Source: a virus. Taken from it: a stretch of 52,407 nucleotides of DNA. Shown here one piece after another: positions 9,175 to 43,730 of this stretch. The DNA lies in UHGV virus genome UHGV-0113213, one strand, 5' to 3'. The translations under genes and the position numbers were made by a program. The notes under the pieces are model-generated. The model was not told the DNA's origin. It did no database searches and worked only from the letters and a program-made list of their open reading frames with translations. Each line of letters begins with the position of its first letter. The first letter of the stretch is position 1.

Positions 9175-9175
9175 A

Positions 9176-9192
9176 TCATTGTCACAATGATT
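9176..9192. promoter_or_regulatory. perfect 17-bp palindrome (candidate operator)
   Basis: ATCATTGTCACAATGAT has 8-bp arms around one central base. It sits immediately downstream of a minus-strand TATAAT (9190-9195). Confidence 0.35.
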
Positions 9193-9199
9193 ATAGCTA

Positions 9200-9242
9200 G
9201 TTTACAAAATGGCTTCACATAGCACGCAACAAGATGTATATA
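9200..9242 (+). promoter_or_regulatory. sigma70-type promoter of the 9283-9710 cassette
   Basis: GTTTACAAAATGG motif (9200-9212) abuts -35 TTCACA (9214-9219); 17-nt spacer; -10 TATATA (9237-9242). Confidence 0.6.
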
Positions 9243-12139: not shown

Positions 12140-12159
12140 GATTTAACCTCATGCAAAAA

Positions 12160-12221
12160 TGTGATCTGTGTATCTATTTTATACAAAATGGCTTTACTTC
12201 AACGACTCCATTTTGTATAAG
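12160..12221. promoter_or_regulatory. back-to-back divergent promoters built on a perfect 13-bp inverted repeat
   Basis: TGTGATCTGTGT (12160-12171). TTATACAAAATGG (12179-12191), 16-nt spacer, CCATTTTGTATAA (12208-12220). Plus strand: -35 TTTACT (12193-12198), 17 nt, -10 TATAAG (12216-12221). Minus strand: -10 TATAAA (12178-12183) facing H. Confidence 0.6.
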
Positions 12222-12266: not shown

Positions 12267-12926
12267 ATGAAACGGTTAGCAAAAGTGGCAATGATTGCGG
12301 CGGTATTGGGTCTGGTTGGTTGCAATGAGGATAATGAAAAAGCGCCTATAGTGACCAATCAAGAGCAACAAGCATTAGTAGAGAAAAATGCTAAATGGCT
12401 TGCAGAACAACAAGCAAAACAAGCCGCATACGATGCACAGTTAGAAAAAGAAAATGCTGGTAAACAGTGGCTTGTAGTTGAAAGAAAAGATGATATGCAG
12501 GACGCAAAAAACGTATTCCTTTTTGTGAAAGCAGAACAATTCAGCGGAAGTCTTGATGCTTTCCCGACACTGAAGGCACAGGATAAGAATAAACCGGTAT
12601 TAACAATCGCTTGCCAGGGTAATAAAACAAAAATGTTCGTAGCATGGTCACACCATGTAACTGACGCCGGGGACACTACTTATATTAACTACCGGATCGG
12701 CGTTCACAAAGCTGTAGCTACTGAGTGGTGGCGGTCAACTAATTATAAAGCTCTTGGATTATGGGACGGCAAAAAAGCCATCCCAATGATTAAAAAACTG
12801 GTTAACGAAAAACAATTCATCATTGAAGTAGTGCCGGAAGCTGGCGACATTGAGAAAGCAGTGTTTAACATTGATGGTCTTTATAACCACATCGACAAAG
12901 TGAAAAACGCTTGCAACTGGAATTAA
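12267..12926 (+). CDS. lipoprotein (moron)
   Basis: 219 aa. MKRLAKVAMIAAVLGLVG|C lipobox. Gln/Ala/Lys-rich linker followed by a globular domain. Confidence 0.8.
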   Translation: MKRLAKVAMIAAVLGLVGCNEDNEKAPIVTNQEQQALVEKNAKWLAEQQAKQAAYDAQLEKENAGKQWLVVERKDDMQDAKNVFLFVKAEQFSGSLDAFPTLKAQDKNKPVLTIACQGNKTKMFVAWSHHVTDAGDTTYINYRIGVHKAVATEWWRSTNYKALGLWDGKKAIPMIKKLVNEKQFIIEVVPEAGDIEKAVFNIDGLYNHIDKVKNACNWN

Positions 12927-12936
12927 GGGGTAAATC

Positions 12937-13311
12937 ATGAAAAAAATAATCAAAGCGGTTCTCATTGGTGTTATGGCTTTAGCTCTTACAGGGTGCGCAA
13001 GATCAACTGATTTCGTTAAGTTAGCTGATAAAAATTTGCAAGTTGGAATGACTTGTGAGCAAGTGAATAAAATAATGGGGGAACCACAAAGAATCGAGCA
13101 TGACGGTAATTATAGTTATCACGTATGGTATTCAGTAACCAGCACGATAGGATTTACTTACATGGATGTTGAAGAATTATCCCCTTCAAGGGTTATCGCA
13201 AAGTTTGATAACTGCATCCTAAAAGAATGGAAAGATCGCAGTAAGGCAAAGTCTGTATACAATACAATCACACACAGTTCACCAGGTACAGCAATTAAAG
13301 ATTTCAATTAG
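12937..13311 (+). CDS. lipoprotein with a BamE/SmpA-OmlA-like fold signature
   Basis: 124 aa. MKKIIKAVLIGVMALALTG|C lipobox. LQVGMTCEQVNKIMGEPQ resembles the BamE-type motif (recalled). Confidence 0.7.
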   Translation: MKKIIKAVLIGVMALALTGCARSTDFVKLADKNLQVGMTCEQVNKIMGEPQRIEHDGNYSYHVWYSVTSTIGFTYMDVEELSPSRVIAKFDNCILKEWKDRSKAKSVYNTITHSSPGTAIKDFN

Positions 13312-28298: not shown

Positions 28299-28577
28299 TT
28301 ATGCCATGCGTGCAAATTCAAGTGATTTGCATTCGTAGTCTTCCTCTGCCTGTTCGATGACTGCCATCATCATTTCGTTTGCGTTGTTGAATGCGTTGCT
28401 TTGTGCGAACTTGTCGGCTCCACCTTCTTCTTCGAACTCCGCGTTGTTTGCTGCAATGTAGTGATATTCGATGTTGTTCAGGTAAGGGCTTGCAGCGTGT
28501 GCTGGGTCTTCTTTCTCCACCATCTCCCAAAATGCGTTTAAGCGAGATTCGACTTCTTTGTTAATCCAGCGTTTCAT
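28299..28577 (-). CDS. hypothetical acidic protein
   Basis: 92 aa. GGAGGG SD. First gene downstream of the 28613-28674 promoter module. Confidence 0.6.
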   Translation of the reverse strand: MKRWINKEVESRLNAFWEMVEKEDPAHAASPYLNNIEYHYIAANNAEFEEEGGADKFAQSNAFNNANEMMMAVIEQAEEDYECKSLEFARMA

Positions 28578-28612
28578 TTTTCTACCCTCCGCATCGTTCT
28601 CTCTTCAGCTTC

Positions 28613-28674
28613 TTTATAACAAAATGGCACTGCCGAAACAATGCCATTTCGTAAACCTTGTGATACAGATCACA
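28613..28674 (-). promoter_or_regulatory. internal promoter module with a near-consensus CRP site
   Basis: Minus strand: AAATGTGATCTGTATCACA (core 28659-28674, 14/16 to TGTGATCTAGATCACA), then 25 nt from the centre to -35 TTGTTT (28636-28641), a 17-nt spacer containing CCATTTTG, and -10 TATAAA (28613-28618). Confidence 0.6.
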
Positions 28675-28675
28675 T

Positions 28676-28903
28676 TTACGTTTCTTCCGTAAAAGTAACC
28701 TTCATCGCCCCATCCGAACTACGGACAACATAACGACCAATACCGCCTAGCGGCCCTGCATACCATAAGTGACCGTAAGTGTCAGTCACGACGATAAACG
28801 GAAATTTAGGAGACAATCCCATCGGTTTTTCAGCCGTGTACTGTGCTCCTTCCTCAAAACAACCTAATCCCGATTCGTTACACGTTAAAATCATTTTATG
28901 CAC
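28676..28903 (-). CDS. small protein, D-x-x-G-x-x-W family member
   Basis: 75 aa. C..S...CF..G..Y.........FIVVTDTYGHLWY. Confidence 0.6.
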   Translation of the reverse strand: MHKMILTCNESGLGCFEEGAQYTAEKPMGLSPKFPFIVVTDTYGHLWYAGPLGGIGRYVVRSSDGAMKVTFTEET

Positions 28904-29135
28904 CTACATACGAAAACGCAGCAAAAGCACCACCACAAGCCCGCGCATAAACAAGCGCAGTTCCACATCCCATCTTATAAAATCGCCATAACTGGCCCTG
29001 GTCGTCAGTAATGGCGTGAATATATTCCTGATCCTTTGCGTCAAACAATGCCGCTCCGACTTCGTAGATCTTGCCATTCTTAAAAAACGCGCTGCATCGT
29101 GAGTATGTGCACTGGTATCTCTGATTCTGTCTCAT
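28896..29135 (-). CDS. small protein, D-x-x-G-x-x-W family member
   Basis: 79 aa. C..S.CS.FF.NGKIYEV......YIHAITDDQGQLWRFY. Confidence 0.6.
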   Translation of the reverse strand: MRQNQRYQCTYSRCSAFFKNGKIYEVGAALFDAKDQEYIHAITDDQGQLWRFYKMGCGTALVYARACGGAFAAFSYVGA

Positions 29136-29144
29136 AACACTACC

Positions 29145-29360
29145 TCACCACTTAACAAAACGCGCGATCGGTTCCGTACTGAACTGGCTGGCAACGTGTC
29201 CACGCGCGTAACAATCCCAATAGCGCCACGCGTCTCCGTGGTCGTCTTTAATGTATTGGGTGTTAAGTTCATCACCAGTCAGGTGAGCTACGGTATATAT
29301 TCCGCCAACCTCAAAGCATGATGATTTTGATTCAGTGCATCTAACATACATGATATTCAT
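29145..29360 (-). CDS. small protein, D-x-x-G-x-x-W family member
   Basis: 71 aa. VRCTESKSSCFEVGGIYTV......QYIKDDHGDAWRYW. Confidence 0.6.
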   Translation of the reverse strand: MNIMYVRCTESKSSCFEVGGIYTVAHLTGDELNTQYIKDDHGDAWRYWDCYARGHVASQFSTEPIARFVKW

Positions 29361-29581
29361 TCCTTATTTGCATTTATAAATAGCGCAACTGGCACACCAT
29401 TACCGCCAACGCCATCAACGAATCCGCTACCATTGAGATCGTTATAAAAAAACCACGGATCGCCATCTTCATCATAAATGTACTGAATATCGTTAGTTCT
29501 GCTTATTAGCGTTTCTATGTCGTAAATCTCATCAACCACAAAAAGATTAGGGAAACGAGACTTTATACATTTTACAAACAT
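29357..29581 (-). CDS. small protein, D-x-x-G-x-x-W family member
   Basis: 74 aa. VKCIKSRFPNLFVVDEIYDI......QYIYDEDGDPWFFY. Confidence 0.6.
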   Translation of the reverse strand: MFVKCIKSRFPNLFVVDEIYDIETLISRTNDIQYIYDEDGDPWFFYNDLNGSGFVDGVGGNGVPVALFINANKE

Positions 29582-29832
29582 CAGAAAACCCCTTTATAAT
29601 CGACCGTGTATTTTACCACCAATTTCCACTCGCTATAGTTTTCCATGTCGCGCGGCTGCCAGCCTTTCATGCCTACAGCACTACGCGCAGCGTGGCGGCG
29701 ATAATCGTCATTAAGATCGGCAATGCACCACGGTTGAAGGAAGAACATATAATTCGCTTCGTTAACCAGAATAGCCATCATCCGTCCAGTGGCCTTATCT
29801 TTCGCCCTGAAATAACTTACCTTGATTTTCAT
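29581..29832 (-). CDS. hypothetical protein
   Basis: 83 aa, ATGA-coupled to its neighbours. Confidence 0.5.
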   Translation of the reverse strand: MKIKVSYFRAKDKATGRMMAILVNEANYMFFLQPWCIADLNDDYRRHAARSAVGMKGWQPRDMENYSEWKLVVKYTVDYKGVF

Positions 29833-30044
29833 TTTAATACCTCGTCGATCAGCATTTCTTCTTCCAGGTTAGCCGGACGTTTACGGAATATCCCGGCAAA
29901 AACCAGGTCATCAAGTAGGTCTTTGCGTTTAAATAGCCACTCTTTCATTATTACCCCGTCATCGCTGCGATATACGACGCCGTTTTTCAAAAAATAAAAA
30001 GTGCTGGTATTTGTTTGAAGGTATAAATCTTCGTAAACGTCCAT
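29829..30044 (-). CDS. hypothetical protein
   Basis: 71 aa, operon member. Confidence 0.5.
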   Translation of the reverse strand: MDVYEDLYLQTNTSTFYFLKNGVVYRSDDGVIMKEWLFKRKDLLDDLVFAGIFRKRPANLEEEMLIDEVLK

Positions 30045-30048
30045 GATA

Positions 30049-30276
30049 TTAACCCTCGACTACTTGCAAGCCGCGCCCCTTATCGCCTACGAAGTCGCCC
30101 AGGCTAAACGTATATGACCACGCCGGGTTAATGTAGTAATCATCAGCACCGTGAGCGATAAGGTCTTTACCCAAAATGACGCAGGTCACATCATCAGAAT
30201 GAACAACGTCTACCGTTTCCCCTACCACGCGTTTTAATGATGGGTAGCCGTGATCGTGCAAGAATTTAACTTTCAT
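30049..30276 (-). CDS. hypothetical protein
   Basis: 75 aa, operon member. Confidence 0.5.
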   Translation of the reverse strand: MKVKFLHDHGYPSLKRVVGETVDVVHSDDVTCVILGKDLIAHGADDYYINPAWSYTFSLGDFVGDKGRGLQVVEG

Positions 30277-30560
30277 ATTTCTTTCCCTTTATAAGTAACA
30301 GCATCAGCGATCAACAATACCGCCAGCAATTCACCGTCATGTAACGGGTCTGGAATAGCAAAAAATATGTCGCTGTTTTTGTCCGGCACTACTACGCGCA
30401 TATTTCCCTGTTTGTCTTCATGCACGAACCACGGCTTTTCGTGTGGCTCAAACATGCCGAAAAGTAATTTAAGATCTATTTCTTCACCCTTCGTGAATAA
30501 CGACACATCAGTTGTAGTGATAACTAACGCTTTCTGATCTGCTGTTTTCTTCGCTCTCAT
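30273..30560 (-). CDS. hypothetical protein
   Basis: 95 aa. Contains F.KG....L...........PWFVHEDKQGN, possibly distantly related to the D-x-x-G family. Confidence 0.5.
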   Translation of the reverse strand: MRAKKTADQKALVITTTDVSLFTKGEEIDLKLLFGMFEPHEKPWFVHEDKQGNMRVVVPDKNSDIFFAIPDPLHDGELLAVLLIADAVTYKGKEI

Positions 30561-30790
30561 TCCTCTGTCTCCCAGCGGTCTATGCTGATTAAAAAGTCCC
30601 GGATAGCGTGTCGCTCGTCGCGCGTCGGTTTACGCTTCCGGTAAATTTTGAAATCGAACCATTCTTTTTCTTGTTCGAAGTCCAGATCGTAAGCAAGCGC
30701 CTCGATATATCCGCAGTCGTGATACTGGTAAGCCACGCCAGCACGAACAAAAAAGCGGGTTTTATCCCGCTTGTGTTCATAGATACACAT
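30557..30790 (-). CDS. hypothetical protein
   Basis: 77 aa from the internal ATG at 30790 (GGGG SD), which avoids overlap with the upstream gene. The track ORF starts at 30835. Confidence 0.45.
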   Translation of the reverse strand: MCIYEHKRDKTRFFVRAGVAYQYHDCGYIEALAYDLDFEQEKEWFDFKIYRKRKPTRDERHAIRDFLISIDRWETEE

Positions 30791-30800
30791 ATTTGCCCCA

Positions 30801-31031
30801 CTATGCAGTTGTGTAACTATCAACCAGCTTTTCATCCTTCATTCTGGAAAGCTGCATGATATTCATCGTGTAGCCGTTGTCAGAGAAAAGCCACTCCGCA
30901 GCCTTGCGACGAAAAACAATATCATCATGGTTACGTGTCCATGTAGCTATCACAACGCGTTTCCCGTTAGTGGCGAACATAGATAACGCGTTATCAACTA
31001 CGTCGATAGCCTGCCAGATTTTTAGTTCCAT
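30801..31031 (-). CDS. hypothetical protein
   Basis: 76 aa, operon member. Confidence 0.5.
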   Translation of the reverse strand: MELKIWQAIDVVDNALSMFATNGKRVVIATWTRNHDDIVFRRKAAEWLFSDNGYTMNIMQLSRMKDEKLVDSYTTA

Positions 31032-31387
31032 GATTTATCTCCGTAGATTTTGAATAGTTCACACGCTTCCTGATTTTCAAGTATATTCATATGCAGGTCA
31101 CGCAGGCGGCGCATTGTGCGGAATCGCGGTCTGAACTCCTGGCTACGTTTAATGTATTTGCCGCCAATTGAATAAATATGCCCGTATGCGTACCATCTGT
31201 TGCCTACCCATATATCATATTCTTTTCCTTCGTAATTAAATTTTATAGTTAGCTCGCCTACTTCAACTATTAACCCTTTATCAATGATGTCATTAAGCAT
31301 TTCGTCCCATTCTTTGAGGAATGGTTGCTGATAAAAACCAAAAAGCGTATTTGCAGCATGGCAAAGATAATCAATGATTATTTGCAT
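31022..31387 (-). CDS. hypothetical protein
   Basis: 121 aa, operon member. Confidence 0.5.
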   Translation of the reverse strand: MQIIIDYLCHAANTLFGFYQQPFLKEWDEMLNDIIDKGLIVEVGELTIKFNYEGKEYDIWVGNRWYAYGHIYSIGGKYIKRSQEFRPRFRTMRRLRDLHMNILENQEACELFKIYGDKSWN

Positions 31388-31391
31388 ATTA

Positions 31392-31604
31392 TCACCACAT
31401 CATGTAATAAACGTTCTCGTCAGCTAATGCGTCCGCTACATCCTGCGTCATGTGCCTGACTTCAAGGAAAAAATCCTCATCATGCCATTCACTAACAAGC
31501 ATACGCGCCCATTTACGGCGGCGGCGCTTATTGTGTCGTAGATCATCAAAAGTCATTAATGCTTTGTCATATGCCCTTACAAGGCGTTTACGGTTACTTT
31601 TCAT
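31392..31604 (-). CDS. hypothetical basic protein
   Basis: 70 aa from the ATG at 31604 (ATGA overlap with the upstream stop). Confidence 0.45.
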   Translation of the reverse strand: MKSNRKRLVRAYDKALMTFDDLRHNKRRRRKWARMLVSEWHDEDFFLEVRHMTQDVADALADENVYYMMW

Positions 31605-31909
31605 TGCTCGACCCACCTTAACATCCAATTCACATCACATTTAATTGCGAATACTCTCACCGGATCAGTGCCGAATAATGGATGTGTGATAGTTTTCACT
31701 TCGTACCCAAAATAAGGAAGGTTAATAATCCTGTGTTTTTCGTGGTTGGCAGGGTATCCCCATTTAATAATCAGGCGCTCATATTCCCGCCCTTCCAGAC
31801 GTTTACGCCAATAGTCATTATAAAGCCGGTATTCCTCCACCTTCTTTCCCGCCCGGATAGCGTGGAAATATTCCCCTTTCAGATTCAAATGCAGGTCTTT
31901 ACTTGCCAT
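31601..31909 (-). CDS. ASCH-domain-like protein
   Basis: 102 aa from Met13. LHLNLKGEYFHAIRAGKKVEEYR and ...VFAIK recall the ASCH beta-barrel pattern. Confidence 0.5.
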   Translation of the reverse strand: MASKDLHLNLKGEYFHAIRAGKKVEEYRLYNDYWRKRLEGREYERLIIKWGYPANHEKHRIINLPYFGYEVKTITHPLFGTDPVRVFAIKCDVNWMLRWVEQ

Positions 31910-32081
31910 CGCTATGATCCTGTAAACAGTCGTTATAGCCTTCAATATATCCGGTTAATCCGGTATTACTCACTGACCATTCAGCCGAACGGCGTTTGAT
32001 GGCCTTGTCCATCGTCATTTCATCGCCTGGTCCGCCTGGCTCAATGTATTTTCTTAAATCCCTTACTATCCACGCCATCAA
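31899..32081 (-). CDS. hypothetical protein
   Basis: 60 aa, operon member. Confidence 0.4.
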   Translation of the reverse strand: MMAWIVRDLRKYIEPGGPGDEMTMDKAIKRRSAEWSVSNTGLTGYIEGYNDCLQDHSDGK

Positions 32082-32156
32082 TGATGCGTATCACTGCACA
32101 CACGCGCCGTTAATGTCAGGTCATTGACCAGCTTTGCAAATAGATGTTCTTTTAAT

Positions 32157-32504
32157 TTAGGCTTCATTGTCGTCACCTTCGAAATACTGCTCAATCGCAC
32201 GTTTGACGTTCATTTCTCGCTGATAATTGTTACCGCTATAGATTGCGGCTGCCGATACGTGATCGATAATTTGCTGTAATAAATAAGGATGAATTTTTAT
32301 TTTTTCATCAAGGACAATGCGAGATGGCTTAGGTGCTGTAGCAATATCATCAACGATTTCTATCTCACCACCTCCGCCGCAGCGAGGACAAACGAATTTA
32401 TCACCTTGATACAGCATGATGCCGCAACCTTTTTCGGTTTTTACGACCATGCCATCGTCGTCGCAGTTTTCGCAATACAGCCACCGAATATTAATTATTT
32501 TCAT
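32157..32504 (-). CDS. zinc-ribbon protein
   Basis: 115 aa from the ATG at 32504. CENC...(26)...CPRCGGGG, a four-Cys ribbon. Confidence 0.5.
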   Translation of the reverse strand: MKIINIRWLYCENCDDDGMVVKTEKGCGIMLYQGDKFVCPRCGGGGEIEIVDDIATAPKPSRIVLDEKIKIHPYLLQQIIDHVSAAAIYSGNNYQREMNVKRAIEQYFEGDDNEA

Positions 32505-32694
32505 TGTCGTTACTCCGTCCGTAAATATGGACAGGCTCAACTGGTACTGCTGGCAATTCGCCATCATTTAACTCGCTCGCCATGCCTAATATTAAACGCG
32601 CTTCAGCACCAGTGACTTTCTTGCACCATGCGTCGCCTGTTTTATCTTCAAATAAGATAACGGCAAACTGATCGTTTATTTCCAGCTTATCCAT
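32491..32694 (-). CDS. hypothetical small protein
   Basis: 67 aa. The start overlaps the Q stop. Contains ILFEDKTGDAWCK (the D-x-x-G-x-x-W motif). Confidence 0.5.
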   Translation of the reverse strand: MDKLEINDQFAVILFEDKTGDAWCKKVTGAEARLILGMASELNDGELPAVPVEPVHIYGRSNDNENN

Positions 32695-33422
32695 TATTCA
32701 CCCCGTGTCACTCGTTTGATTTCGCTTTCCGCGCGAGATTCTTCTTTGAATAGCTCCGCTATGGCGTCTTCATAGAAAACCCTGTATTTCTTCCACCATG
32801 TTGATCTGCTTACCGGGAAAACAAGCTGGTTAACAGCCTGCCGGACGAGATCTACAGGGAAACGCGAGTACCCGCGCCCGCCGCAGTGCTGGCACGTTTT
32901 GAATACTGGCATTTCCGCCGCTTCGCTGGCTGCTTTATCCGGTACTTCGCCACGCCCCTTGCACCTCTGGCAATGGTTTTTAACGTAGCCTTTGCCGTTG
33001 CACCGCGAGCAAACTGTCGATGTGTATTCACAATATGGATTCGGTAAAAGCCCGTTACCTCCGCACTTAGGGCAAACCTTTTCGGTAGCCGCACTTTGGC
33101 AGTAATCCCGAAACGCGAAAACGGCAACAAGAATAATAAGATCATTGCGTTGTTCTTCATTTAATTCCATCACGTATTCGTAATCTTTCGCCATAACCCT
33201 TAAACGCTCTGTAAGCAAAATTACGGCCCTGTGTTTTTCAGCTTGCGATAGCTCCATTTTCCCTAAAAAAGCACTATAGCCAAGCTCTACGCGCGATTGC
33301 GCCATACCAGCGGCGGTAAGCGCATCCGTCGTATTAAGTGCATCCGGGGATGTTCCCCGGCTTTCGTCTGATAATCGCGGTGATTTGGGAAAGTGGAATT
33401 TCAGAATGGATTCTAAATTCAT
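32694..33422 (-). CDS. Q: late-gene antiterminator Q-like protein with four DnaJ-type CxxCxGxG zinc knuckles
   Basis: 242 aa. CPKCGGNG, CSRCNGKG, CQRCKGRG, CQHCGGRG. The N-terminus MNLESILKFHFPKSP... resembles Q-family proteins of enterobacterial prophages as I recall them. Position after RusA. Confidence 0.65.
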   Translation of the reverse strand: MNLESILKFHFPKSPRLSDESRGTSPDALNTTDALTAAGMAQSRVELGYSAFLGKMELSQAEKHRAVILLTERLRVMAKDYEYVMELNEEQRNDLIILVAVFAFRDYCQSAATEKVCPKCGGNGLLPNPYCEYTSTVCSRCNGKGYVKNHCQRCKGRGEVPDKAASEAAEMPVFKTCQHCGGRGYSRFPVDLVRQAVNQLVFPVSRSTWWKKYRVFYEDAIAELFKEESRAESEIKRVTRGE

Positions 33423-33604
33423 TATTTACCCCCATAGCGAGCAATAAGGCGTTTGCGATCAGAAATGGTTTGCACCAGTTTTCTTTCAAGCTCTTTCAGC
33501 GCAAGTAATTCCTGCATGTGAAAAGCCTGGATTCGTCTGACTGTCGCTAAATCATGCTCGTCACGTTGAACATCTATTTGCAGATCTTTAATTTCGTTTT
33601 TCAT
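33422..33604 (-). CDS. hypothetical coiled-coil protein
   Basis: 60 aa, heptad-like, coupled on both sides. Confidence 0.5.
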   Translation of the reverse strand: MKNEIKDLQIDVQRDEHDLATVRRIQAFHMQELLALKELERKLVQTISDRKRLIARYGGK

Positions 33605-34008
33605 TGCTCACCCCACATATTAGTCGCATATTCGTTAATATCCGGTAGCAGGTCGCCGCGTTCGCATACCTTAATAAACAATCGCCCGCCTTTTACCTTC
33701 CGGCAGCGGACAATTTTTATTGAGTCGATTTGCCCATCATCATTCCAGAATCCGGCACAAGTAAGGCTGTCAAAAAGGCATTTTGGGATATTATCAAGAT
33801 CTCTGACCCGGTTATCCGGCGGCGCGGCATAAATGGCGATTGCCAGTCGGCAAGATAGGTTAATGTCTAAATTTAATAATTCGATGATGTCTTTTACTTG
33901 TTCCCGGTATTCCTTCCCCACTTCGCTGATATAGTGAAAACCTCGTGAATGTCGGTAATATCGGTTATTAGATGGCGGGTAAGGTAGGCTAAATGTATAC
34001 TCGTTCAT
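33601..34008 (-). CDS. rusA: Holliday junction resolvase RusA
   Basis: 135 aa. LPYPPSNNRYYRH..G....S..G..YR, RDLDN..K..FD.LT.AGFW.DD.Q, KGGRL. Close to E. coli RusA by eye. Confidence 0.9.
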   Translation of the reverse strand: MNEYTFSLPYPPSNNRYYRHSRGFHYISEVGKEYREQVKDIIELLNLDINLSCRLAIAIYAAPPDNRVRDLDNIPKCLFDSLTCAGFWNDDGQIDSIKIVRCRKVKGGRLFIKVCERGDLLPDINEYATNMWGEQ

Positions 34009-34610
34009 GCTGCCTTTCTCCTTAAGGCGTCCAATTTTGCCTGATAGATGTTTATTAGCTCCTTACATTCTGCGATCGTCCATTTATGCGTATCATTGTT
34101 GTTCTCCAGCGCTTCCACCCTGGCGAGGCCAATTTTTCGAATCAGTGCTGGGCGATAGGCTTGTATGTTTCCGTCTAATGTCTGATTGCAGTGCCTACAT
34201 TGTTTATGGACGTTATCTTCATTGAAGCGAAGGTGTCCGGCGGCGGCGACCGTCCTGTAATGCCCCGCATCGTATCCGCATTGCTCACCGTAGTAAGTCC
34301 CGCAGGATATGCACGGCAACCGCGCGTCACGTTCGCGGATATAGGCATTAAATACCGCTTGTGCCTGCTTTAACCAATAGCTACGCGGATTTAACTGCTT
34401 CCGCTTCCGGTTGCGTTCTTCCCGCTGGCTATCACGGCGTTTCTTCCGTTCCATAGCCTTCATAGCCTTCTCACGGTCGCGGCATAACTGGTCAAATTTC
34501 AGTTCTTCCAGGCATTCGTCGCTGCACCACGTTTGATTGTGATATTTAGGCTCAAAAAAAACGCCGCAGCATTTGCAACGGCGTCTTATTGGTTTCTTAG
34601 GGTTTTGCAT
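34005..34610 (-). CDS. ninG: NinG/Rap family recombination endonuclease
   Basis: 201 aa from the ATG at 34610. C.CCG..F, W.KQAQ..FN.YIR.RD....CISCG......DAGHY......LRF.E.N.H.QC..CN, as in lambda NinG. Confidence 0.85.
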   Translation of the reverse strand: MQNPKKPIRRRCKCCGVFFEPKYHNQTWCSDECLEELKFDQLCRDREKAMKAMERKKRRDSQREERNRKRKQLNPRSYWLKQAQAVFNAYIRERDARLPCISCGTYYGEQCGYDAGHYRTVAAAGHLRFNEDNVHKQCRHCNQTLDGNIQAYRPALIRKIGLARVEALENNNDTHKWTIAECKELINIYQAKLDALRRKAA

Positions 34611-34624
34611 AAAAACCACCCCAA

Positions 34625-34801
34625 TTATTTTTGATTCTCTGTTTCGTTCAGCCTTTCGGCGTGTCCGGCCCTTAGCGAGTGATCTACACATTCGTTGTAC
34701 TCGTTACATTCTCCTTTTTTCGTGCTGCATACATTGCACATTGCACGCATGACGCTTTCTCGTTCATAGTCGTCATGCCATTGGTAATCATCAAAAGACA
34801 T
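34625..34801 (-). CDS. Cys-rich small protein
   Basis: 58 aa (below the cutoff): MSFDDYQWHDDYERESVMRAMCNVCSTKKGECNEYNECVDHSLRAGHAERLNETENQK. AAGGAG SD. First ORF after the 34878-34959 promoter module. Confidence 0.55.
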   Translation of the reverse strand: MSFDDYQWHDDYERESVMRAMCNVCSTKKGECNEYNECVDHSLRAGHAERLNETENQK

Positions 34802-34877
34802 AATGCTCTCTCCTTTTCAGGTGATTTCTACGCATTTCAGCGCTGCCGGATTTTTAAAGAGCATTTTGTTTGCTTGA

Positions 34878-34959
34878 AGTATACAAAATGGATACCCCCA
34901 AACAAGGCAAAAAGCGCCATTATGTGATCCGCATCACGCAATGATGCCATTTTGTAAAC
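34878..34959 (-). promoter_or_regulatory. internal promoter module with a CRP-like site
   Basis: Minus strand: GTTTACAAAATGG (34947-34959), CGTGATGCGGATCACA (34923-34938), 25 nt from the centre to -35 TTGTTT (34900-34905), a 16-nt spacer ending CCATTTTG, and -10 TATACT (34878-34883). Confidence 0.6.
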
Positions 34960-34960
34960 T

Positions 34961-35725
34961 TTAGTCCGGTAAAATGCGGTTAAGCGTAGTACGAGTGATG
35001 GCCCGGTCGTTAGCCAGGAATACAGCACGGGCAAAGCCGCGCGGCGTTAGTGAGCGGATCATCTTAGTGCGTTTCGACTCTCCTCCTAACTTCGCGTGCT
35101 GTTTGCTGTCTTCCCATTCATCCGGCATAGGTACAGGCCGGAATAGCGGCTGCTTAAATCCATTCCCGCACCAGATACAAGTTTTCTTCGTGTATGCGTC
35201 GCGGGCAGCTATGTATTCAGGGAAAGCAGGGTGTTTGTCGTCTTCAGGCAGGTAGCCACCGTAAGCGCACGGGTTGAAGATAAAATCAGGTTTGCGCCAT
35301 AACGTTGACAGCGCACCTACCGGATTTTCCACCATCCACGGGACGTGGTACATATCAGCAAGCGTTTCTACCAGTTTTGCGTTGTATACCGCCTTCTGCT
35401 GGAAGTAAGGTTCTTTTTTCCGCTTATCAGCAAACCAGCGAGCGCCGGACACCGCAAGATCGTCGCACGGAGGAAAGCCCAGGATAATGTCAGGATCTGG
35501 ATAAACAGACAATTCAGGGGAGAACATTACCAGGAAATGGCTGTCAATCCATACGTTGATATACTCAATGTTCGGATGAATGATTTTGACGCCTTCATAA
35601 TCGCCGTGATTAGCGCCATCATAGTTGAAGCAATAGCATTTATAACCAGCGTCGGCCCAATCTTTAACGGCGTATCCGCTGCCGTCGTACAGCGACCACA
35701 CCACCCAATTTCTAAGCCCACTCAT
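34961..35725 (-). CDS. DNA (cytosine-5) methyltransferase, orphan
   Basis: 254 aa. Motif I LYDGSG, motif IV GFPPCDDLAVSG, motif VI MVENP. No restriction partner seen. Confidence 0.7.
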   Translation of the reverse strand: MSGLRNWVVWSLYDGSGYAVKDWADAGYKCYCFNYDGANHGDYEGVKIIHPNIEYINVWIDSHFLVMFSPELSVYPDPDIILGFPPCDDLAVSGARWFADKRKKEPYFQQKAVYNAKLVETLADMYHVPWMVENPVGALSTLWRKPDFIFNPCAYGGYLPEDDKHPAFPEYIAARDAYTKKTCIWCGNGFKQPLFRPVPMPDEWEDSKQHAKLGGESKRTKMIRSLTPRGFARAVFLANDRAITRTTLNRILPD

Positions 35726-36225
35726 TTCCTACCCTCGAACGTAAAGTAGCGGCGCATGATGATAGTGATCACCGTTACCGCCGCCATTTTTGAGATGAAT
35801 TGCATAGCTGATATTTCCGGCATGAATGCCATAAACGATAGCGTTGGGAAAATTAACGCATCGCCAATGGCGGACGCTATATTTGCAGGCCAGCGTTTAG
35901 AATCGAAATCACCAGGTAAAACCCGGTAAACGCCGCCAGAAATAAGCGCACCGGAAACAACCGCGACGAATGACGCGATCGCCACCATTCCGGCGTCGTA
36001 ATTTATCAGCACCGTGATTGCGCCAGCGGCGGCGCATGTTGTAGCCGACCATTTAAGGCCGCCGTCATATAACAGAAAATCACGAATCATCATATTGACA
36101 CACACGGCGGCTACCGTGGTGATCGGAATTACCCACGGGCCACAGTGGTTAACAATAAGATTGATGATAACGAAAACGGCGACATAAACGCAGGCTAATA
36201 ACCTGTCAATTGCCACCATCTTCAT
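35722..36225 (-). CDS. polytopic membrane protein, VUT/YhhQ-like (queuosine-precursor transporter family)
   Basis: 167 aa, about 5 TM segments. ANIASAIGDALIFPTLSFMAF resembles the conserved YhhQ/DUF165 segment (recalled). Shorter than YhhQ. Confidence 0.4.
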   Translation of the reverse strand: MKMVAIDRLLACVYVAVFVIINLIVNHCGPWVIPITTVAAVCVNMMIRDFLLYDGGLKWSATTCAAAGAITVLINYDAGMVAIASFVAVVSGALISGGVYRVLPGDFDSKRWPANIASAIGDALIFPTLSFMAFMPEISAMQFISKMAAVTVITIIMRRYFTFEGRK

Positions 36226-36525
36226 TTAGCTCTTCCTCCCGATACGCTAATATCTGTTCGGCCTTAAGCGCGTTATAAGCAATAAGGTCTATAAGAGTGT
36301 CGAGCGGATCAGTTCCATTAGCGAGAATAGCCCCTAAACGCGCTTCCTTGAGGCAAATCATTAGATCCCATACATCAAGTGGGGTTAAATTCGCATTCAT
36401 CTTAGCGTTGAAAATAGCCGCTATTTTTGGCGCTGATTTTTCTTCTTTTCGATCGTATCCGTTTTGCTCCCTCTTGCCTCGATAGTTTCAGCCGCAAGTC
36501 TCAGCAATTCAGCCGCTTTATTCAT
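36206..36525 (-). pseudogene. frameshifted small gene (G-x-R-x3-Y-G ... K-x-x-R ... D-x3-D-x3-Y family, DUF6378-like)
   Basis: Frame A starts at 36525 (MNKAAELLRLAAETIEARGSKTDT...) and stops at 36421. Frame B is open from 36487 (..RGKREQNGYDRKEEKSAPKIAAIFNAKMNANLTPLDVWDLMICLKEARL...) and runs to 36206. Together they read as one protein. Confidence 0.5.
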
Positions 36526-37057
36526 TTTCTGCACCTCTTGCATATAGCTCTTTACGTGTTATCTGCGTGAAAATACATTCATGTCTGCATCGTGGATGCC
36601 AGATCAGGAACAAGCTCCCCTTATTGTTCCCGCTTACTGGTTTCCCTGTTGCAGCATTGATAAACGCCAGCCGCCCGCGCGTGATTAATCGGCATTCGTT
36701 TGCCGTCTCCACGCCGTTCATAAACCAGCTAACAGAAATGTCAGCGGGCAATAACATTACGCATCCGATATGATTTCGGCTGTGTTCAAGCGCCGCTTTA
36801 TCAACGAATGGCCCCGGATTAGAATATGGCGGATTCATCCAGACATACTCACCAGGCATCGCCACCGCTCCCCACGGATAATGGAGCGTGTCCATTTCTT
36901 CGGTTATATATCGCGGTATTAATGCGTTTGCCTTGTTTGCCGCCACATCCGCGACGAACTCGAATTCTCGATCCATTCCTCTAAAAACGGGTTTTGGCGT
37001 TTGCCATAAGTCCTTTATTTCTTTCGGCGTATGGCTGCCGCCGTAATCATTTTTCAT
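36518..37057 (-). CDS. dam: phage N6-adenine DNA methyltransferase (Dam family)
   Basis: 179 aa. W.TP..VF......F.F..DVAA...NA, NPPYS, LLPA..S..WF. Confidence 0.85.
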   Translation of the reverse strand: MKNDYGGSHTPKEIKDLWQTPKPVFRGMDREFEFVADVAANKANALIPRYITEEMDTLHYPWGAVAMPGEYVWMNPPYSNPGPFVDKAALEHSRNHIGCVMLLPADISVSWFMNGVETANECRLITRGRLAFINAATGKPVSGNNKGSLFLIWHPRCRHECIFTQITRKELYARGAENE

Positions 37058-37066
37058 TACGCCCCC

Positions 37067-37555
37067 TTAGAAATAATCCTGATCTGTTCCCCAGCGGTTA
37101 TTCAGATACCCCACCAACCACACAAAACGCTCAATACTGATTAGCGGGGCGACCTTGCGATAATGCTTATCTAATATCAGCCGCGTGGCTTTATCGCTGT
37201 AGCCGTTCTTCTCTACCTCCGCTTTGCAGGCCGAAAGCGCGGCGCGGGCGGCAGTCTTTACGGCGTTAAATTGCGGCTCTGACATATTGAATAAGGCCAT
37301 AGGATCACCATGTGTCAGTCCAATCCGGCGCGGCAGTCCAGCAAAAACCAATGAATGCGCTAACAGCCAATAAAGCGCGGGCTGCAAAAAGAATATTCCC
37401 AATGTCGTTAAATTCAGGAAGCGACCACGTAATAAACATAGCCCCAGCATAATAACACCGATAACAGTCATGGCCGCCAGGAAAACAAAAAGCGTAGCCA
37501 AAAGCCACGCCCCCAACCAGTTAAAAAAGCTCTTAAGCATTTTAAACGTCCTCAA
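37067..37555 (-). CDS. membrane protein
   Basis: 162 aa, three N-terminal TM helices and a soluble C-terminal domain. Confidence 0.55.
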   Translation of the reverse strand: MRTFKMLKSFFNWLGAWLLATLFVFLAAMTVIGVIMLGLCLLRGRFLNLTTLGIFFLQPALYWLLAHSLVFAGLPRRIGLTHGDPMALFNMSEPQFNAVKTAARAALSACKAEVEKNGYSDKATRLILDKHYRKVAPLISIERFVWLVGYLNNRWGTDQDYF

Positions 37556-37745
37556 TTACCCCGCCTTTCACACGCTCTTTAATATCCCATACGTGAGGCT
37601 TGCATATTTCCTGATAATAGTGATCCGGCCTGCTGCCGAAATACCATTTGCCATCCATATAAAAATAAACGCCAGAATAATTTCCTGGCGCTGCCTTTGT
37701 TGCTGCTTCTGGAATTTTCCATTCCATGTAATGTTTAAATTTCAT
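37542..37745 (-). CDS. hypothetical protein
   Basis: 67 aa, operon member. Confidence 0.5.
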   Translation of the reverse strand: MKFKHYMEWKIPEAATKAAPGNYSGVYFYMDGKWYFGSRPDHYYQEICKPHVWDIKERVKGGVIEDV

Positions 37746-37929
37746 GAGTTTTTAAATAACCCCTTCTGAATGCTTTGATGTAAAGTCCTAGCCTTCTTAT
37801 ATGCTGAACGCCATCAATGATGCGCACTAAATAAATTGCACCGTTTGTGTCAGATACAAAATGACAGCCAAAACCAATACCAACCAACTTCAGGTTGTCA
37901 GGTATTCTATAATCAGTTTTCTGTTCCAT
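37735..37929 (-). CDS. hypothetical protein
   Basis: 64 aa, operon member. Confidence 0.5.
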   Translation of the reverse strand: MEQKTDYRIPDNLKLVGIGFGCHFVSDTNGAIYLVRIIDGVQHIRRLGLYIKAFRRGYLKTHEI

Positions 37930-37932
37930 GCC

Positions 37933-38025
37933 TCACCTCATATGGTATTCAATAAACCACCTGATAAACAGACATAAGGCAATAAAACCCCAGCAACAGC
38001 ACATATAAAACAATGTGTCGTCCAT
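37933..38025 (-). CDS. hydrophobic micropeptide (30 aa)
   Basis: MDDTLFYMCCCWGFIALCLFIRWFIEYHMR. The ATG lies 2 nt after the upstream stop, and the stop lies 3 nt before the next ATG. Confidence 0.5.
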   Translation of the reverse strand: MDDTLFYMCCCWGFIALCLFIRWFIEYHMR

Positions 38026-38027
38026 AA

Positions 38028-38246
38028 TTAAGCCTCAATAACACCGTAATCGAACGTGCCTAAATACCGTTCGATACTTACAACCTCAATACCATCAATG
38101 CACCGTTTCCACACAGACACCTGGCTTTCATTTTCTCTGAAGTGCATATTAGAAAGCACTTCATCGGCTGGGTAGCCTTTCCCGGCGACGTAGGCATCGT
38201 GACCTACGCCACCTTCTACGCAATAAAGCATCAATTCGCGTTCCAT
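38028..38246 (-). CDS. hypothetical protein
   Basis: 72 aa from the ATG at 38246 (GGAGG SD). The track ORF's longer N-terminus would cover the promoter module. Confidence 0.5.
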   Translation of the reverse strand: MERELMLYCVEGGVGHDAYVAGKGYPADEVLSNMHFRENESQVSVWKRCIDGIEVVSIERYLGTFDYGVIEA

Positions 38247-38280
38247 CTTGTTTCCTCCGTGCCGTAAACCTCTTAATTTC

Positions 38281-38341
38281 AGTTTACAAAACGGATATGC
38301 GATCGCAATACAAAATGTATATTTATGTGATCGCAATCACG
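38281..38341 (-). promoter_or_regulatory. internal promoter module with a CRP-like site
   Basis: Minus strand: CGTGATTGCGATCACA (38326-38341), 25 nt from the centre to -35 TTGCGA (38303-38308), a 16-nt spacer ending CCGTTTTG, and -10 TAAACT (38281-38286). Confidence 0.55.
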
Positions 38342-38344
38342 CTG

Positions 38345-39875: not shown

Positions 39876-39995
39876 TCACCCCAACAATGCAACAATTAAT
39901 TCAGCAATAAAAACGGCGACATAAAAAGAAGCTGTGATATAAATCACCCCAATAACGAAGGCGGCGGCTAATGCCGCAATTTTTACCATGCTCAT
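39876..39995 (-). CDS. hydrophobic micropeptide (39 aa)
   Basis: MSMVKIAALAAAFVIGVIYITASFYVAVFIAELIVALLG. ATGA overlap with the upstream gene. Confidence 0.5.
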   Translation of the reverse strand: MSMVKIAALAAAFVIGVIYITASFYVAVFIAELIVALLG

Positions 39996-41719: not shown

Positions 41720-42010
41720 TTAATGGTAGCGGACTTTATCCAGGGGTTTTTCCCCTAAATGGCGTGGTTGCGTTGCGTGGTAGTAGCTGCCGCTTTCATT
41801 TTCCGTATACCATTTTACTGATCCTTTGCGACGTTCTTTAATGCTATTTGGTTTGCATCTTTCCTCGTTTGCAAATCGAATAGCTTTATCCACATTGTCT
41901 GTTTTATTGATTGCAGGTGATGATTTTCTTTCGTTTTCTCTTTTTATCCTTCTGCGTTCCCTGGCATTCATTTTGCTATCACATTTACCATATATAATTG
42001 TAACGCTCAT
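41720..42010 (-). CDS. N: N-like transcription antiterminator (arginine-rich motif)
   Basis: 96 aa, first gene after PL. Residues 14-29, MNARERRRIKRENERK, resemble the ARMs of lambda N (MDAQTRRRERRAEKQ) and P22 N. boxA/boxB-like elements are present (see 43322-43354). Confidence 0.6.
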   Translation of the reverse strand: MSVTIIYGKCDSKMNARERRRIKRENERKSSPAINKTDNVDKAIRFANEERCKPNSIKERRKGSVKWYTENESGSYYHATQPRHLGEKPLDKVRYH

Positions 42011-42358: not shown

Positions 42359-42401
42359 AATATACGCCCCGTAAAACATCGAGTCAATCCATTTTGTATA
42401 C
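42359..42401 (-). promoter_or_regulatory. PL-like early leftward promoter with an abutting phage motif
   Basis: Minus strand: GTATACAAAATGG (42389-42401), then -35 TTGACT (42382-42387), a 17-nt spacer and -10 TATATT (42359-42364). Confidence 0.65.
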
Positions 42402-42477: not shown

Positions 42478-42504
42478 GGCAAAGAAAAGCCGCCATTCGG
42501 CGGC
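42478..42504 (-). terminator. rho-independent terminator after the repressor gene
   Basis: GCCGCC(42489-42494) ATTC GGCGGC(42499-42504), followed on the minus strand by TTTTCTTT. Confidence 0.75.
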
Positions 42505-42510
42505 TAATGT

Positions 42511-43158
42511 TTATGGCAGGTTTACGATCTTCGCATCAACCACCACGCCTATAATTTTTGATTCTGGATTCATAGGGATTGGCGGATACAGCGGATTGAG
42601 CGAACGTAAAAGCCTTTGACCTCCATCAATAATCAACTGTTTAAACGTCGGTATCTGCCCTTCCTCAAGCTGGGCTATAACCAGTTTGCCGTCAATAGCT
42701 GGCGCGTGCGGGTCCACAAGTATCATCGTCCCCGCCGGGATGCTCAACCCCTGCGGCGCGTTCATTGATTCACCTTTGGCAACCAGCCAGTAACTGTCAT
42801 CTGAACAAATAACGCTAGTCGTAACGTGTCGTAATGCTGAACGCCTTGCGTCATCCATATTGTTTACTGTGTCCTTCCAGTCAATAACCGGGTAACTACC
42901 TAAATCACGCGGCGGCACGGCCTGAAGTGTATTAGAAACAGAATCATCAATGACCATGCCATCATGTGTAACAGTAAACTGCCGACGACCAAGCTCGCGC
43001 ATAATCCGCGCAATATCTTCAAGATTTGGCTCTCGGCGACCGTTCAGCCAGTGTGACAGGCCGCCTTTAGTTATCCCCATACGATCCGCGAGTGAATCCT
43101 GGCTCATGCCCTGCGCCCGCATGAGCTGCTTTGCTAAGTCATACCATTTTGTTTTCAT
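42511..43158 (-). CDS. cI: CI-type prophage repressor (HTH + S24 LexA-like peptidase)
   Basis: 215 aa. N-terminal HTH (SQDSLADRMGITKGGLSHWLNGRREP). C-terminal autocleavage domain with GESM (Ser) and a downstream Lys (FKQL). Confidence 0.88.
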   Translation of the reverse strand: MKTKWYDLAKQLMRAQGMSQDSLADRMGITKGGLSHWLNGRREPNLEDIARIMRELGRRQFTVTHDGMVIDDSVSNTLQAVPPRDLGSYPVIDWKDTVNNMDDARRSALRHVTTSVICSDDSYWLVAKGESMNAPQGLSIPAGTMILVDPHAPAIDGKLVIAQLEEGQIPTFKQLIIDGGQRLLRSLNPLYPPIPMNPESKIIGVVVDAKIVNLP

Positions 43159-43217
43159 GTCGCTACCCTATAACCTCAAAAAGTTTGATGCAAGTCACAA
43201 AACGTGTATTTTAAGCC

Positions 43218-43245
43218 TTGATCTTAAAATTCCATTTTGTAAACT
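43218..43245 (+). promoter_or_regulatory. PR-like early rightward promoter overlapped by the phage motif
   Basis: -35 TTGATC (43218-43223), a 16-nt spacer ending CCATTTTG, -10 TAAACT (43240-43245). An alternative is TTGATG (43185)-16-TATTTT (43207). Exact motif CCATTTTGTAAAC at 43232-43244. Confidence 0.5.
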
Positions 43246-43321: not shown

Positions 43322-43354
43322 TGCTCTTTAAAAATCCGGTGTCGCTGCGAAGCG
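43322..43354 (+). promoter_or_regulatory. nutR-like site: boxA plus a boxB hairpin
   Basis: TGCTCTTTAAAAA (43322-43334) against the boxA consensus (C/T)GCTCTTTAACAA. 8 nt later, CGCT-GCGA-AGCG (43343-43354): a 4-bp stem with a GNRA loop. Confidence 0.55.
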
Positions 43355-43463: not shown

Positions 43464-43730
43464 ATGAGTATAAACATGATTAGTAAAGCATGGAACGTAA
43501 AACTTAATAGCCCGATTCAAAAACTTGTCTTAATGGCTCTGGCTGAAAAGGCAGATAACAAAGGACGGGTACATGATGCATCACGCAAAGAAGTAGCCGC
43601 AATGTGTGAACTTCCTGTTCATACGGTACATGATGCCTTCGCCGCGTTAATGGATAAAGGATTTGTTTGTCGTCTTGATGCATTCAGTGATGTCTATGTA
43701 GTGATGTTGCCGGGGGGGGATGATCTATGA
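43464..43730 (+). CDS. winged-helix/HTH protein (HTH_36-like), first gene of the rightward operon
   Basis: 88 aa from the ATG at 43464 (AGGAG SD). AWNVKLNSPIQKLVLMALAEKADNKGRV...S..EVAAMCELPVHTVHDAFAAL..KGFV. Confidence 0.6.
   Translation: MSINMISKAWNVKLNSPIQKLVLMALAEKADNKGRVHDASRKEVAAMCELPVHTVHDAFAALMDKGFVCRLDAFSDVYVVMLPGGDDL

Follow-up and report, generated by a model that had tools for sequence, protein, structure and literature searches.

Conserved promoter-like cassettes with predicted CRP sites in a mEpimmI prophage of Escherichia coli

Three short intergenic segments in the leftward operon of the virus genome UHGV-0113213, a stretch of 52,407 nucleotides here called the window, raise the question whether a temperate phage has placed parts of its transcription under the host regulator CRP. 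The initial annotation of this DNA had described the segments as minus-strand promoter modules that share a CRP-like palindrome at a fixed distance from the -35 hexamer. Placement of the window by BLAST identified it as a complete mEpimmI (mEp021-like) prophage with 85 to 89% identity to MagusPhagus, mEp010, mEp013, mEp021, mEp044, mEp515 and mEp554 and up to 94% identity to prophages in 35 complete E. coli genomes. Phages of the mEpimmI group are temperate, Nus-dependent, non-lambdoid siphoviruses of E. coli, which are reportedly as frequent in human faecal isolates as lambdoid phages and are not induced by ultraviolet light (PMC11893012). The same paper covers the repressor, Gp17 and three nut sites of the group; promoters and operators are not described in it, and CRP is nowhere mentioned. 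We found that the arrangement seen in the window is real, statistically strong and evolutionarily conserved, and that CRP control of phage expression by carbon status is predicted from it, not proved.

All three modules are present on the minus strand where they had been placed, with the palindromes, hexamers, spacing, spacer ends CC(A/G)TTTTG and downstream ATG codons as proposed. In module 1, the palindrome TGTGATCTGTATCACA (28674-28659) forms the core of the CRP-like site AAATGTGATCTGTATCACAAGG (28656-28677, core 28659-28674). The candidate core promoter at 28613-28641 consists of the -35 hexamer TTGTTT (28641-28636) and the -10 hexamer TATAAA (28618-28613), with TTATAA (28619-28614) as an alternative -10; the 17-nt spacer ends in CCATTTTGT, and the next ATG is at 28577. 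Module 2 has the palindrome CGTGATGCGGATCACA (34938-34923) within the site TTGCGTGATGCGGATCACATAA (34920-34941, core 34923-34938), followed by a core promoter at 34878-34905 with -35 TTGTTT (34905-34900), a 16-nt spacer ending in CCATTTTG, -10 TATACT (34883-34878) and an ATG at 34801. For module 3, the corresponding elements are the palindrome CGTGATTGCGATCACA (38341-38326), the site CAGCGTGATTGCGATCACATAA (38323-38344, core 38326-38341) and a promoter at 38281-38318 with -35 TTGCGA (38308-38303), a 16-nt spacer ending in CCGTTTTG, -10 TAAACT (38286-38281) and an ATG at 38246. All three palindromes have their centre 25 nt from the -35, and the CRP core consensus TGTGATCTAGATCACA is matched at 14, 12 and 12 of 16 positions in modules 1, 2 and 3, respectively. 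The term 16-bp palindrome was too strict, since arms of 5 to 6 bp flank four non-symmetric bases. Each module fills a gap of about 100 bp that extends from the stop codon of the preceding gene to the ribosome-binding site and ATG of the next. The hexamer pairs (TTGTTT/TATAAA, TTGTTT/TATACT and TTGCGA/TAAACT) fall below the 9/12 threshold of a consensus scan, and we regard them as candidate sigma-70 core promoters that are recognisable but sub-optimal.

The CRP-like sites clearly exceed chance expectation. Exact copies of GTGATNNNNATCAC (GTGAT-N4-ATCAC) occur four times in the whole window against 0.05 expected, a number reached in none of 100 shuffles, and TGTGAN6TCACA with at most one mismatch occurs nine times against 1.4 expected (0 of 100 shuffles). 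Scoring with a CRP position weight matrix (PWM), which had been suggested along with the modules, bore the sites out. The matrix was symmetrised and built from 18 non-redundant published E. coli CRP 22-mers (Table S1 of PMC5772556), with obvious losses from optical character recognition repaired. Its consensus is the canonical AAATGTGATCTAGATCACATTT, and the reference sites score 6.8 to 20.0 bits in leave-one-out analysis, with a median of 14.2. The sites of modules 1, 2 and 3 reach 17.9, 17.4 and 17.0 bits and are the top three of 52,386 window positions, with the four key bases (G5, G7, C16 and C18 of the 22-mer) kept in all of them. The lac site scores 17.7 bits. In total, five window positions lie above the reference median, compared to 0.23 in shuffles. 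The fourth exact GTGAT-N4-ATCAC, GGTGATTTATATCACA at 39933-39948 (15.7 bits, rank 4), had escaped the initial annotation. It is located inside a small hydrophobic open reading frame (ORF) with no promoter motif downstream and is conserved in two related E. coli genomes (L002 and L005).

To compare the modules among relatives, related DNA was retrieved from IMG/VR via two exact anchors, the -10 region of module 2 and the nut boxA, and five annotated prophages or phages and mEp021 were added. The boxA anchor belongs to the adjacent nutR2 site and is independent of both palindrome and promoter. Upstream of nutR2, YGTGAT-N4-RTCACA was kept in 37 of 37 distinct contexts, and the central four nucleotides were hypervariable, with at least a dozen forms. 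Downstream of the site follow a conserved TAATGGCGC, 4 to 6 hypervariable nucleotides, the essentially invariant CTTGTT of the -35, 5 further hypervariable nucleotides and a conserved GTATCCATTTTGTATACT. Despite this substitution load, the distance from site to -10 is 47 nt in 33 of 34 contexts, and PWM scores in relatives range from 15.9 to 21.1. A hairpin formed by the two hypervariable islands around the -35 was ruled out, as the best helix register was matched by 796 of 1,000 column shuffles. Since the islands lack complementarity beyond chance, they are best described as free spacers around a constrained hexamer and not as hairpin arms. A footprint of this kind is to be expected where a protein site and the -35 and -10 hexamers are kept in register.

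The register is also kept in module 3 (23 contexts), where the PWM scores range from 3.4 to 18.6 with a median of 14.5. In module 1 (19 contexts), the left half AAATGTGATCT is kept and the scores range from -6.4 to 20.8 (median, 16.0). The conserved half of module 1 and of a related cassette at a moron gene, described below, is AAATGTGATCT(A/G), which matches the CRP half-site consensus including its flanks; in module 1 this half is often AAATGTGATCTA, a perfect CRP half-site including flanks. BLAST of the cassettes against all phage records returned matches within the mEpimmI group only, and a replication-protein scan of genome contigs for relatives in other genera gave no matches but those to unrelated N-terminal domains. 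What we observed directly is the architecture of the sequence, the excess of the sites over chance, their PWM quality and this pattern of conservation.

Furthermore, the modules are not a private trio. They belong to a phage-wide family of five to seven cassettes per genome, which includes the early promoter P_L and a moron promoter. The family is marked by a second repeated element. Among 10-mers, over-representation in the window is strongest for CATTTTGTAT (12 copies) and CCATTTTGTA (10 copies), and the 12-mer CCRTTTTGTAWA is present in nine exact copies (at 9201, 12180, 12208, 34880, 34947, 38283, 42389, 43232 and 47213) against 0.05 expected. Seven of the nine face a gene start 20 to 90 nt downstream, and the other two are reverse copies beside other promoters. 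The spacer end CC(A/G)TTTTG is part of this motif; it is present in the modules as proposed but is not specific to them, and reverse copies, too, adjoin -35 hexamers, as seen at P_R, at a promoter at 7559 and in module 1. Upstream of the module 2 palindrome, a reverse copy of the CCATTTTGTAAA motif lies at 34947-34958 on the plus strand. Some copies are near-palindromic, for example TACATTTTGTA, which abuts the -35 of module 3. Candidate roles of the motif are an extended -10 or UP-like element, an operator of a phage protein or a termination U-tract.

The cassette at P_L (43184-43245, plus strand) is composed of the site TTTGATGCAAGTCACA (43184-43199), the -35 TTGATC (43218-43223) and the -10 TAAACT (43240-43245). 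Its 16-nt spacer ends in CCATTTTG and its site centre lies 48 nt upstream of the -10, a geometry like that of the modules. P_L is situated between the repressor start and the boxA GCTCTTTAAAAATCCGG of nutL (43323-43339) and is independently fixed as a promoter because the nutL site follows it. Its half-sites TTTGA and TCACA are invariant in 13 contexts, with changes in the centre only. The moron cassette (12157-12221, plus strand) contains the half-site AAATGTGATCT, the reverse motif TATACAAAATGG, the -35 TTTACT, the forward motif CCATTTTG and the -10 TATAAG, with 48 nt from site to -10 as in P_L. It is found upstream of a VasI/TagO-like accessory gene (12267-12926; Pfam VasI match) that is oppositely oriented inside the tail operon. 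Counting P_L, the distance from site centre to -10 is 47 to 48 nt at five promoters.

A related cassette at 7523-7587 (plus strand) has the site TGTGATCTGCGTCACG (15.3 bits, rank 5), followed by CCAAAATGGA abutting the -35 TTGATC (7559-7564), 17 nt and the -10 TATATT (7582-7587). A degenerate one at 590-626 (plus strand) consists of TGTGATCTGTGTTACA and the reverse motif TTATACAAAATG, has no forward -10 motif after it and scores 11.9 bits. Of the secondary palindromes listed in the initial annotation, those at 7523-7538 and, as a half-site, at 12160-12175 are real, and the one given as 589-604 is in fact at 590-605, off by one position. At P_R (42387-42359, minus strand; TTGACT-17-TATATT), the reverse motif TATACAAAATGG abuts the -35, and no palindrome within one mismatch of the pattern occurs in the P_R region.

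The best single explanation of these findings is that the modules are CRP-assisted, class I-like sigma-70 promoter cassettes, a prediction that we consider about evenly balanced between right and wrong. Each cassette begins at the stop codon of a gene, ends at the ribosome-binding site of the gene after it and contains, in fixed register, a putative host CRP site (TGTGA-N6-TCACA), an A/T-rich stretch that often includes a reverse copy of TACAAAATGG, a weak -35 (TTGnnn), a 16- to 17-nt spacer ending in CCRTTTTG and a -10 (TAnnnT). Bound at its site, cAMP-CRP would recruit RNA polymerase via the alpha C-terminal domain, like at lac P1, and the weak internal promoters, P_L and the moron promoter would be more active under glucose scarcity. 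CRP occupancy, promoter activity, start sites and the direction of regulation are what we infer here. If the predicted -10 hexamer occupies positions -12 to -7, the site centre falls at about -59.5 to -60.5, which is an activator position and not an occluding one. Class I CRP sites are centred near -61.5, -71.5, -82.5 or -92.5. Weak hexamers below the scan threshold are as expected for activator-dependent promoters, and the DNA between site and -35 is A/T-rich and UP-like; class I spacing is reportedly relaxed when such an element lies immediately downstream of the CRP site (PMC4132738). No Crp/Fnr-family protein is annotated by PGAP in the related prophages, and no Crp/Fnr domain was found in the window regulators scanned.

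In comparison with lac P1, the modules share a TGTGA-N6-TCACA site of lac-like quality (17 to 18 bits versus 17.7 bits for lac), centred about one helical turn upstream of a weak -35 with A/T-rich DNA in between, the place of the alpha C-terminal domain. Unlike lac P1, they have a predicted centre at -59.5/-60.5 instead of -61.5, lie within a phage operon and not at a catabolic gene and carry a phage-specific motif in the spacer and upstream region; their CRP dependence is predicted only. A precedent for cAMP-CRP control of a phage promoter is pir of phage T1 (PMC6737242), where the host protein controls a phage promoter directly and links the life cycle of the phage to the supply of sugar. 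At pir, however, CRP inhibits a single regulator gene, as was measured, whereas activation of several promoters is predicted here, and the phages are unrelated.

Several observations weigh against CRP-assisted promoters. The predicted site centre is 1 to 2 bp short of the optimal -61.5, and it rests on a predicted -10. The sites of modules 1 and 3 are decayed in roughly 25 to 33% of relatives: the right half of module 1 is often degenerate, seven of 23 module 3 contexts have a single key half-site change and score 5 bits or less, and the -10 of module 3 varies (TAAACT, TAAGCC, TGAACT). The P_L site scores only 9.8 bits, its left half TTTGA being non-consensus, and the site at 7523 is about 3 bp farther from its promoter, which would put its centre near -63.5. 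The modules also split into two paralogous subfamilies, so that part of the common spacing was inherited and not independently selected. Since every cassette holds a repeated phage-specific motif in addition to the CRP-like site, a phage-encoded factor that also acts at the cassettes is suggested. Finally, the -35 and spacer of module 1 lie inside a 15-bp hairpin with a U-tract, which alone could account for the conservation of this module, and the palindrome of module 2 forms part of a longer dyad, which is imperfect and spans 34 bp.

The second motif leads to the first alternative, in which the palindromes are operators of a phage protein (the CI-like repressor, the MarR-like product of the first P_L-operon gene, at 43473-43730, or an unrecognised small protein) and the likeness to CRP sites is coincidence or mimicry. 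GTGAT-N4-ATCAC is indeed a typical 14-bp dimer operator, several helix-turn-helix proteins are encoded in the window, one copy of the palindrome (43184-43199) lies in the immunity region beside the repressor start, and CCRTTTTGTAWA is present in every cassette, often as inverted pairs around the -35. We nevertheless regard operators as unlikely. P_R, which is necessarily controlled by the repressor, lacks the palindrome, and a centre near -60 fits an activator and not occlusion. In relatives of module 2, RTCACA tolerates G instead of A ahead of TCACA, which fits TGTGA-N6-TCACA as well as GTGAT-N4-ATCAC, and in the module 1 family the conserved half matches the CRP half-site through its flanks (AAATGTGATCTA). 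Moreover, the three modules are the three top CRP-matrix positions in 52 kb. The specific case of an immunity operator for the CI-like repressor was rejected, because P_R has no such palindrome and the one at P_L is about 60 bp upstream of the start.

A second alternative is that the main function of the modules is exerted in the RNA, where they would separate gene blocks as intrinsic terminators or attenuators, with hexamers and CRP likeness being incidental. The evidence for it is concentrated in module 1, where a hairpin, ACGAAAUGGCAUUGU-UUCG-GCAGUGCCAUUUUGU followed by UUAU (28619-28652, minus strand), overlaps the -35 and spacer. The hairpin is built from a reverse and a forward copy of the motif; its centroid energy is about -20 kcal/mol, and the minimum free energy (MFE) of the 61-nt segment is -20.8 kcal/mol (z = -4.1). 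In the form GGCAUUGU-UUCG-GCAGUGCC with the U-tract AUUUUGUUAU, it has a stem that contains G+C and an immediate U-tract. Across 19 relatives, pairing is kept in 99.3% of the cells; variation is limited to one-sided, wobble-compatible transitions in six pairs, and no compensatory double changes were seen. This variation is consistent with selection on the RNA but is not proof of it. In the mEp044 record (L102), the homologue of module 1 is annotated as an ARNold terminator (335-379, T7), and the matches in mEp554 and mEp010 overlap an annotated terminator, too.

At module 2, the mEp021 record (L001) has a terminator, t4/TERM_4, annotated on the palindrome (13088-13121). In the window, the palindrome is part of the MFE hairpin fold of a 71-nt segment (-20.7 kcal/mol, z = -2.4), and a T-run is adjacent to it. 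The annotation is doubtful because relatives do not keep this T-run but have, for instance, TATTCAC or TTTACAC, and a terminator-type hairpin with U-tract is weak here and absent from module 3 and P_L. For module 3, P_L and the moron cassette, no fold with participation of the palindrome is significant (z = -0.6 to -0.1); the two motif copies of the moron cassette form a separate A/U-rich hairpin (-14.6 kcal/mol, z = -4.2). A common RNA hairpin as the general function of the palindromes was rejected, since module 2 is the sole case in which the palindrome enters the minimum-energy fold. An Rfam scan of the whole window gave no family at gathering score. The right arm of the palindrome is non-complementary in most module 1 relatives, and no covariation was found around the module 2 -35. 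Terminators would also leave unexplained the invariant CTTGTT and the constant 47- to 48-nt register that is common to the bona fide promoter P_L. As a general account of the modules, termination is distinctly unlikely. Module 1 itself is best read as a composite of terminator and promoter because its candidate -35 lies within the stem; it may terminate as well as, or instead of, initiate transcription.

A composite of this kind resembles the PeSL cassettes of T4-type phages, in which the stem-loop is usually between the -35 and -10 or over the -10, and for which promoter and terminator functions were shown experimentally (PMC2839356, PMC4122927). All three modules share with them the format of an intergenic cassette of about 100 bp between stop codon and Shine-Dalgarno sequence, and module 1 further shares a candidate sigma-70-type promoter with a predicted stem-loop over the -35/-10 interval and a location within blocks of small unknown genes, at sites of gene-content difference, where such repeats occur. 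PeSL promoters differ in being near-consensus and having no activator site, whereas the hexamers of the modules are weak and preceded by a CRP-like site; in addition, a convincing stem-loop is confined to module 1, the host phage is a temperate siphovirus, and there is no sequence similarity. By analogy to PeSL, module 1 with its hairpin would probably shield the gene block downstream from transcription that arrives from upstream and at the same time start this block anew.

The surroundings of module 1 bring up a third alternative, by which the cassettes owe their conservation mainly to a function as linkers for homologous recombination, with small accessory genes shuffled at these mosaic boundaries and any role in transcription being secondary. 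The conserved part of module 1 is an island of about 70 bp (28560-28720 and homologues in records L003-L036) between non-homologous genes, with at least three unrelated contexts on the left and at least three on the right among relatives. The gene downstream of it starts with ATGAAACGCTGG, ATGAAAAGCGAT or ATGAACGCTAAC, which marks a mosaic junction. The parallel to the T4-type PeSL cassettes and the presence of paralogous cassette subfamilies within one genome fit this view as well. However, recombination alone does not predict invariant half-sites and hexamers that are parted by hypervariable spacers, modules 2 and 3 lie between conserved core genes, and each genome has a single copy of module 1 and no flanking pairs, which makes linkers very unlikely as the main function.

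Other sigma factors and regulators, judged by eye against textbook consensuses, were rejected: spacing or key bases do not fit sigma-32, sigma-54, sigma-28 or sigma-E, for which the relevant bases are hypervariable in relatives, and IHF, Fis, LexA, LacI-family and FNR sites fail as well, FNR since it needs TTGAT where the modules have GTGAT, and LacI-type operators since they have 4 bases and not 6 between TGTGA and TCACA, with a conserved centre.

The boxA region of nutR2, GCTCTTTAAAAATCCGG (34846-34862, minus strand), starts 15 nt after the -10 of module 2 and is identical to the boxA at nutL. The nutR2 site is located downstream of the cytosine methyltransferase gene, and the N-like Gp17 can modify transcripts that start at module 2 or P_L, each with its nut site (PMC11893012). 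It is plausible that a CRP-assisted promoter inside the operon precedes ninF, ninG, rusA and Q. As nutR2 directly follows module 2, read-through to Q should still need Gp17, as at lambda pR-nutR, and module 2 transcripts should reach ninG, rusA and Q only when Gp17 is present. The proposal that parts of the leftward operon are started from CRP-responsive internal promoters is supported in part: site quality, conservation and fixed spacing speak for it. A link from carbon status to lytic commitment, as also proposed, is an extrapolation. Like lambda pL-nutL and pR-nutR, both module 2 and P_L precede a boxA/boxB nut site; unlike here, lambda has no third nut site with a promoter of its own upstream. 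To our knowledge, no CRP site has been described at lambda pL or pR. The moron cassette, in turn, is comparable to the moron promoters of temperate phages in that it is predicted to drive an oppositely oriented accessory gene within the tail operon. About 300 nt downstream of the module 2 promoter, in the 5' part of ninG, a weak hairpin is followed by a run of eight T (34562-34580, minus strand), which may terminate transcripts that were left unmodified at nutR2.

The CRP-like site at P_L lies 26 to 41 nt upstream of the repressor ATG (region 43159-43200). A divergent repressor promoter would have just one plausible -35, TTGCAT, with which the site overlaps, and a -10, TATAGG, that ends 8 nt before the ATG, so that the repressor mRNA may be nearly leaderless. 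With its position about 33 bp upstream of the ATG, the site would thus overlap the region in which the repressor promoter must lie, and a factor that binds the palindrome could repress this promoter.

In its broadest form, the CRP hypothesis would make host cAMP-CRP a built-in input to the whole mEpimmI regulatory circuit, which we hold to be quite unlikely. Co-activation by CRP would then extend to P_L with the replication genes, to the promoter linked to nutR2 ahead of Q, to the moron promoter and to two other internal promoters, and at P_L it would also lower repressor synthesis through the overlap with the putative -35 of the divergent repressor promoter. Carbon limitation would tilt a prophage family that is very common in human-gut E. 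coli, and reportedly not UV inducible, toward lytic development, and the cassettes would also serve as mobile promoter-terminator units through which genes that the phage newly acquires come under the same control.

As predicted CRP-dependent promoters and as composite promoter-terminator cassettes, the elements have known counterparts; the phage family in which they occur was defined recently, and its transcription signals had not been described. If they are CRP dependent, they would provide a concrete route from the nutrient status of the gut to prophage genes, affecting the early replication operon, the block with the late-gene activator Q and accessory genes expressed by the prophage, and the current terminator labels on two of the elements would be corrected. 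If not, the cassettes still define a conserved regulatory unit of the mEpimmI family. GTGA/TCACA, CTTGTT and CCATTTTGTA are precise targets for mutagenesis.

The gene layout around the cassettes was taken from annotated relatives and our own ORF map. The minus strand of the window corresponds to the plus strand of mEp021. Structural and lysis genes, on the minus strand, extend up to about 27 kb and are followed by a block of small genes on the same strand. Further along this strand lie Q (32694-33422), rusA (33601-34008), ninG just upstream of rusA with an annotated start near 34609, two methyltransferase genes, erf and ssb, the N-like gene gp17 (41720-42010) and the gene of the CI-like repressor (42511-43158). 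To the right lie the replication genes, on the plus strand, and the integrase region.

Each of the three palindromes includes one GATC (Dam) sequence, at 28668-28671, 34926-34929 and 38328-38331, and module 3 has a second one at 38301-38304 in TGCGATCGCA. The phage carries an N6-adenine methyltransferase gene of its own (36518-37057). GATC is not essential, because some relatives are without it (e.g., TGTGATGAATGTCACA).

Additional promoter-like arrangements were noted near other copies of the motif. The region 7540-7620 appears to hold back-to-back divergent promoters: on the minus strand, CCATTTTGGTATGAT is a canonical extended -10 and shares the motif with the UP-like region of the plus-strand promoter TTGATC-17-TATATT, and the palindrome at 7523-7538 would fall at about +1 to +20 of the minus-strand promoter. 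On the minus strand at 9159-9215, a promoter-like copy, CCATTTTGTAAAC, precedes a perfect TATAAT, after which comes a weak CRP-like site, TGTGACAATGATCTTA (9186-9171), at a position that would repress; its counterpart in MagusPhagus is TGTGATGAAGATCTCA. Beside P_R, the motif copy at 42389-42400 (plus strand) is oriented like a plus-strand promoter with the -10 TATACT. Transcription from it would run into the 3' end of the repressor gene toward a bidirectional hairpin at 42488-42505 and may give an RNA antisense to the repressor.

In four related E. coli genomes (L002, L004, L005 and L006), the prophage is integrated in the ogt-fnr region. It adjoins ogt directly in three of the four and is a few kb away in M1/5. 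The host fnr gene therefore lies a few kb from the phage integrase, which is probably a coincidence.

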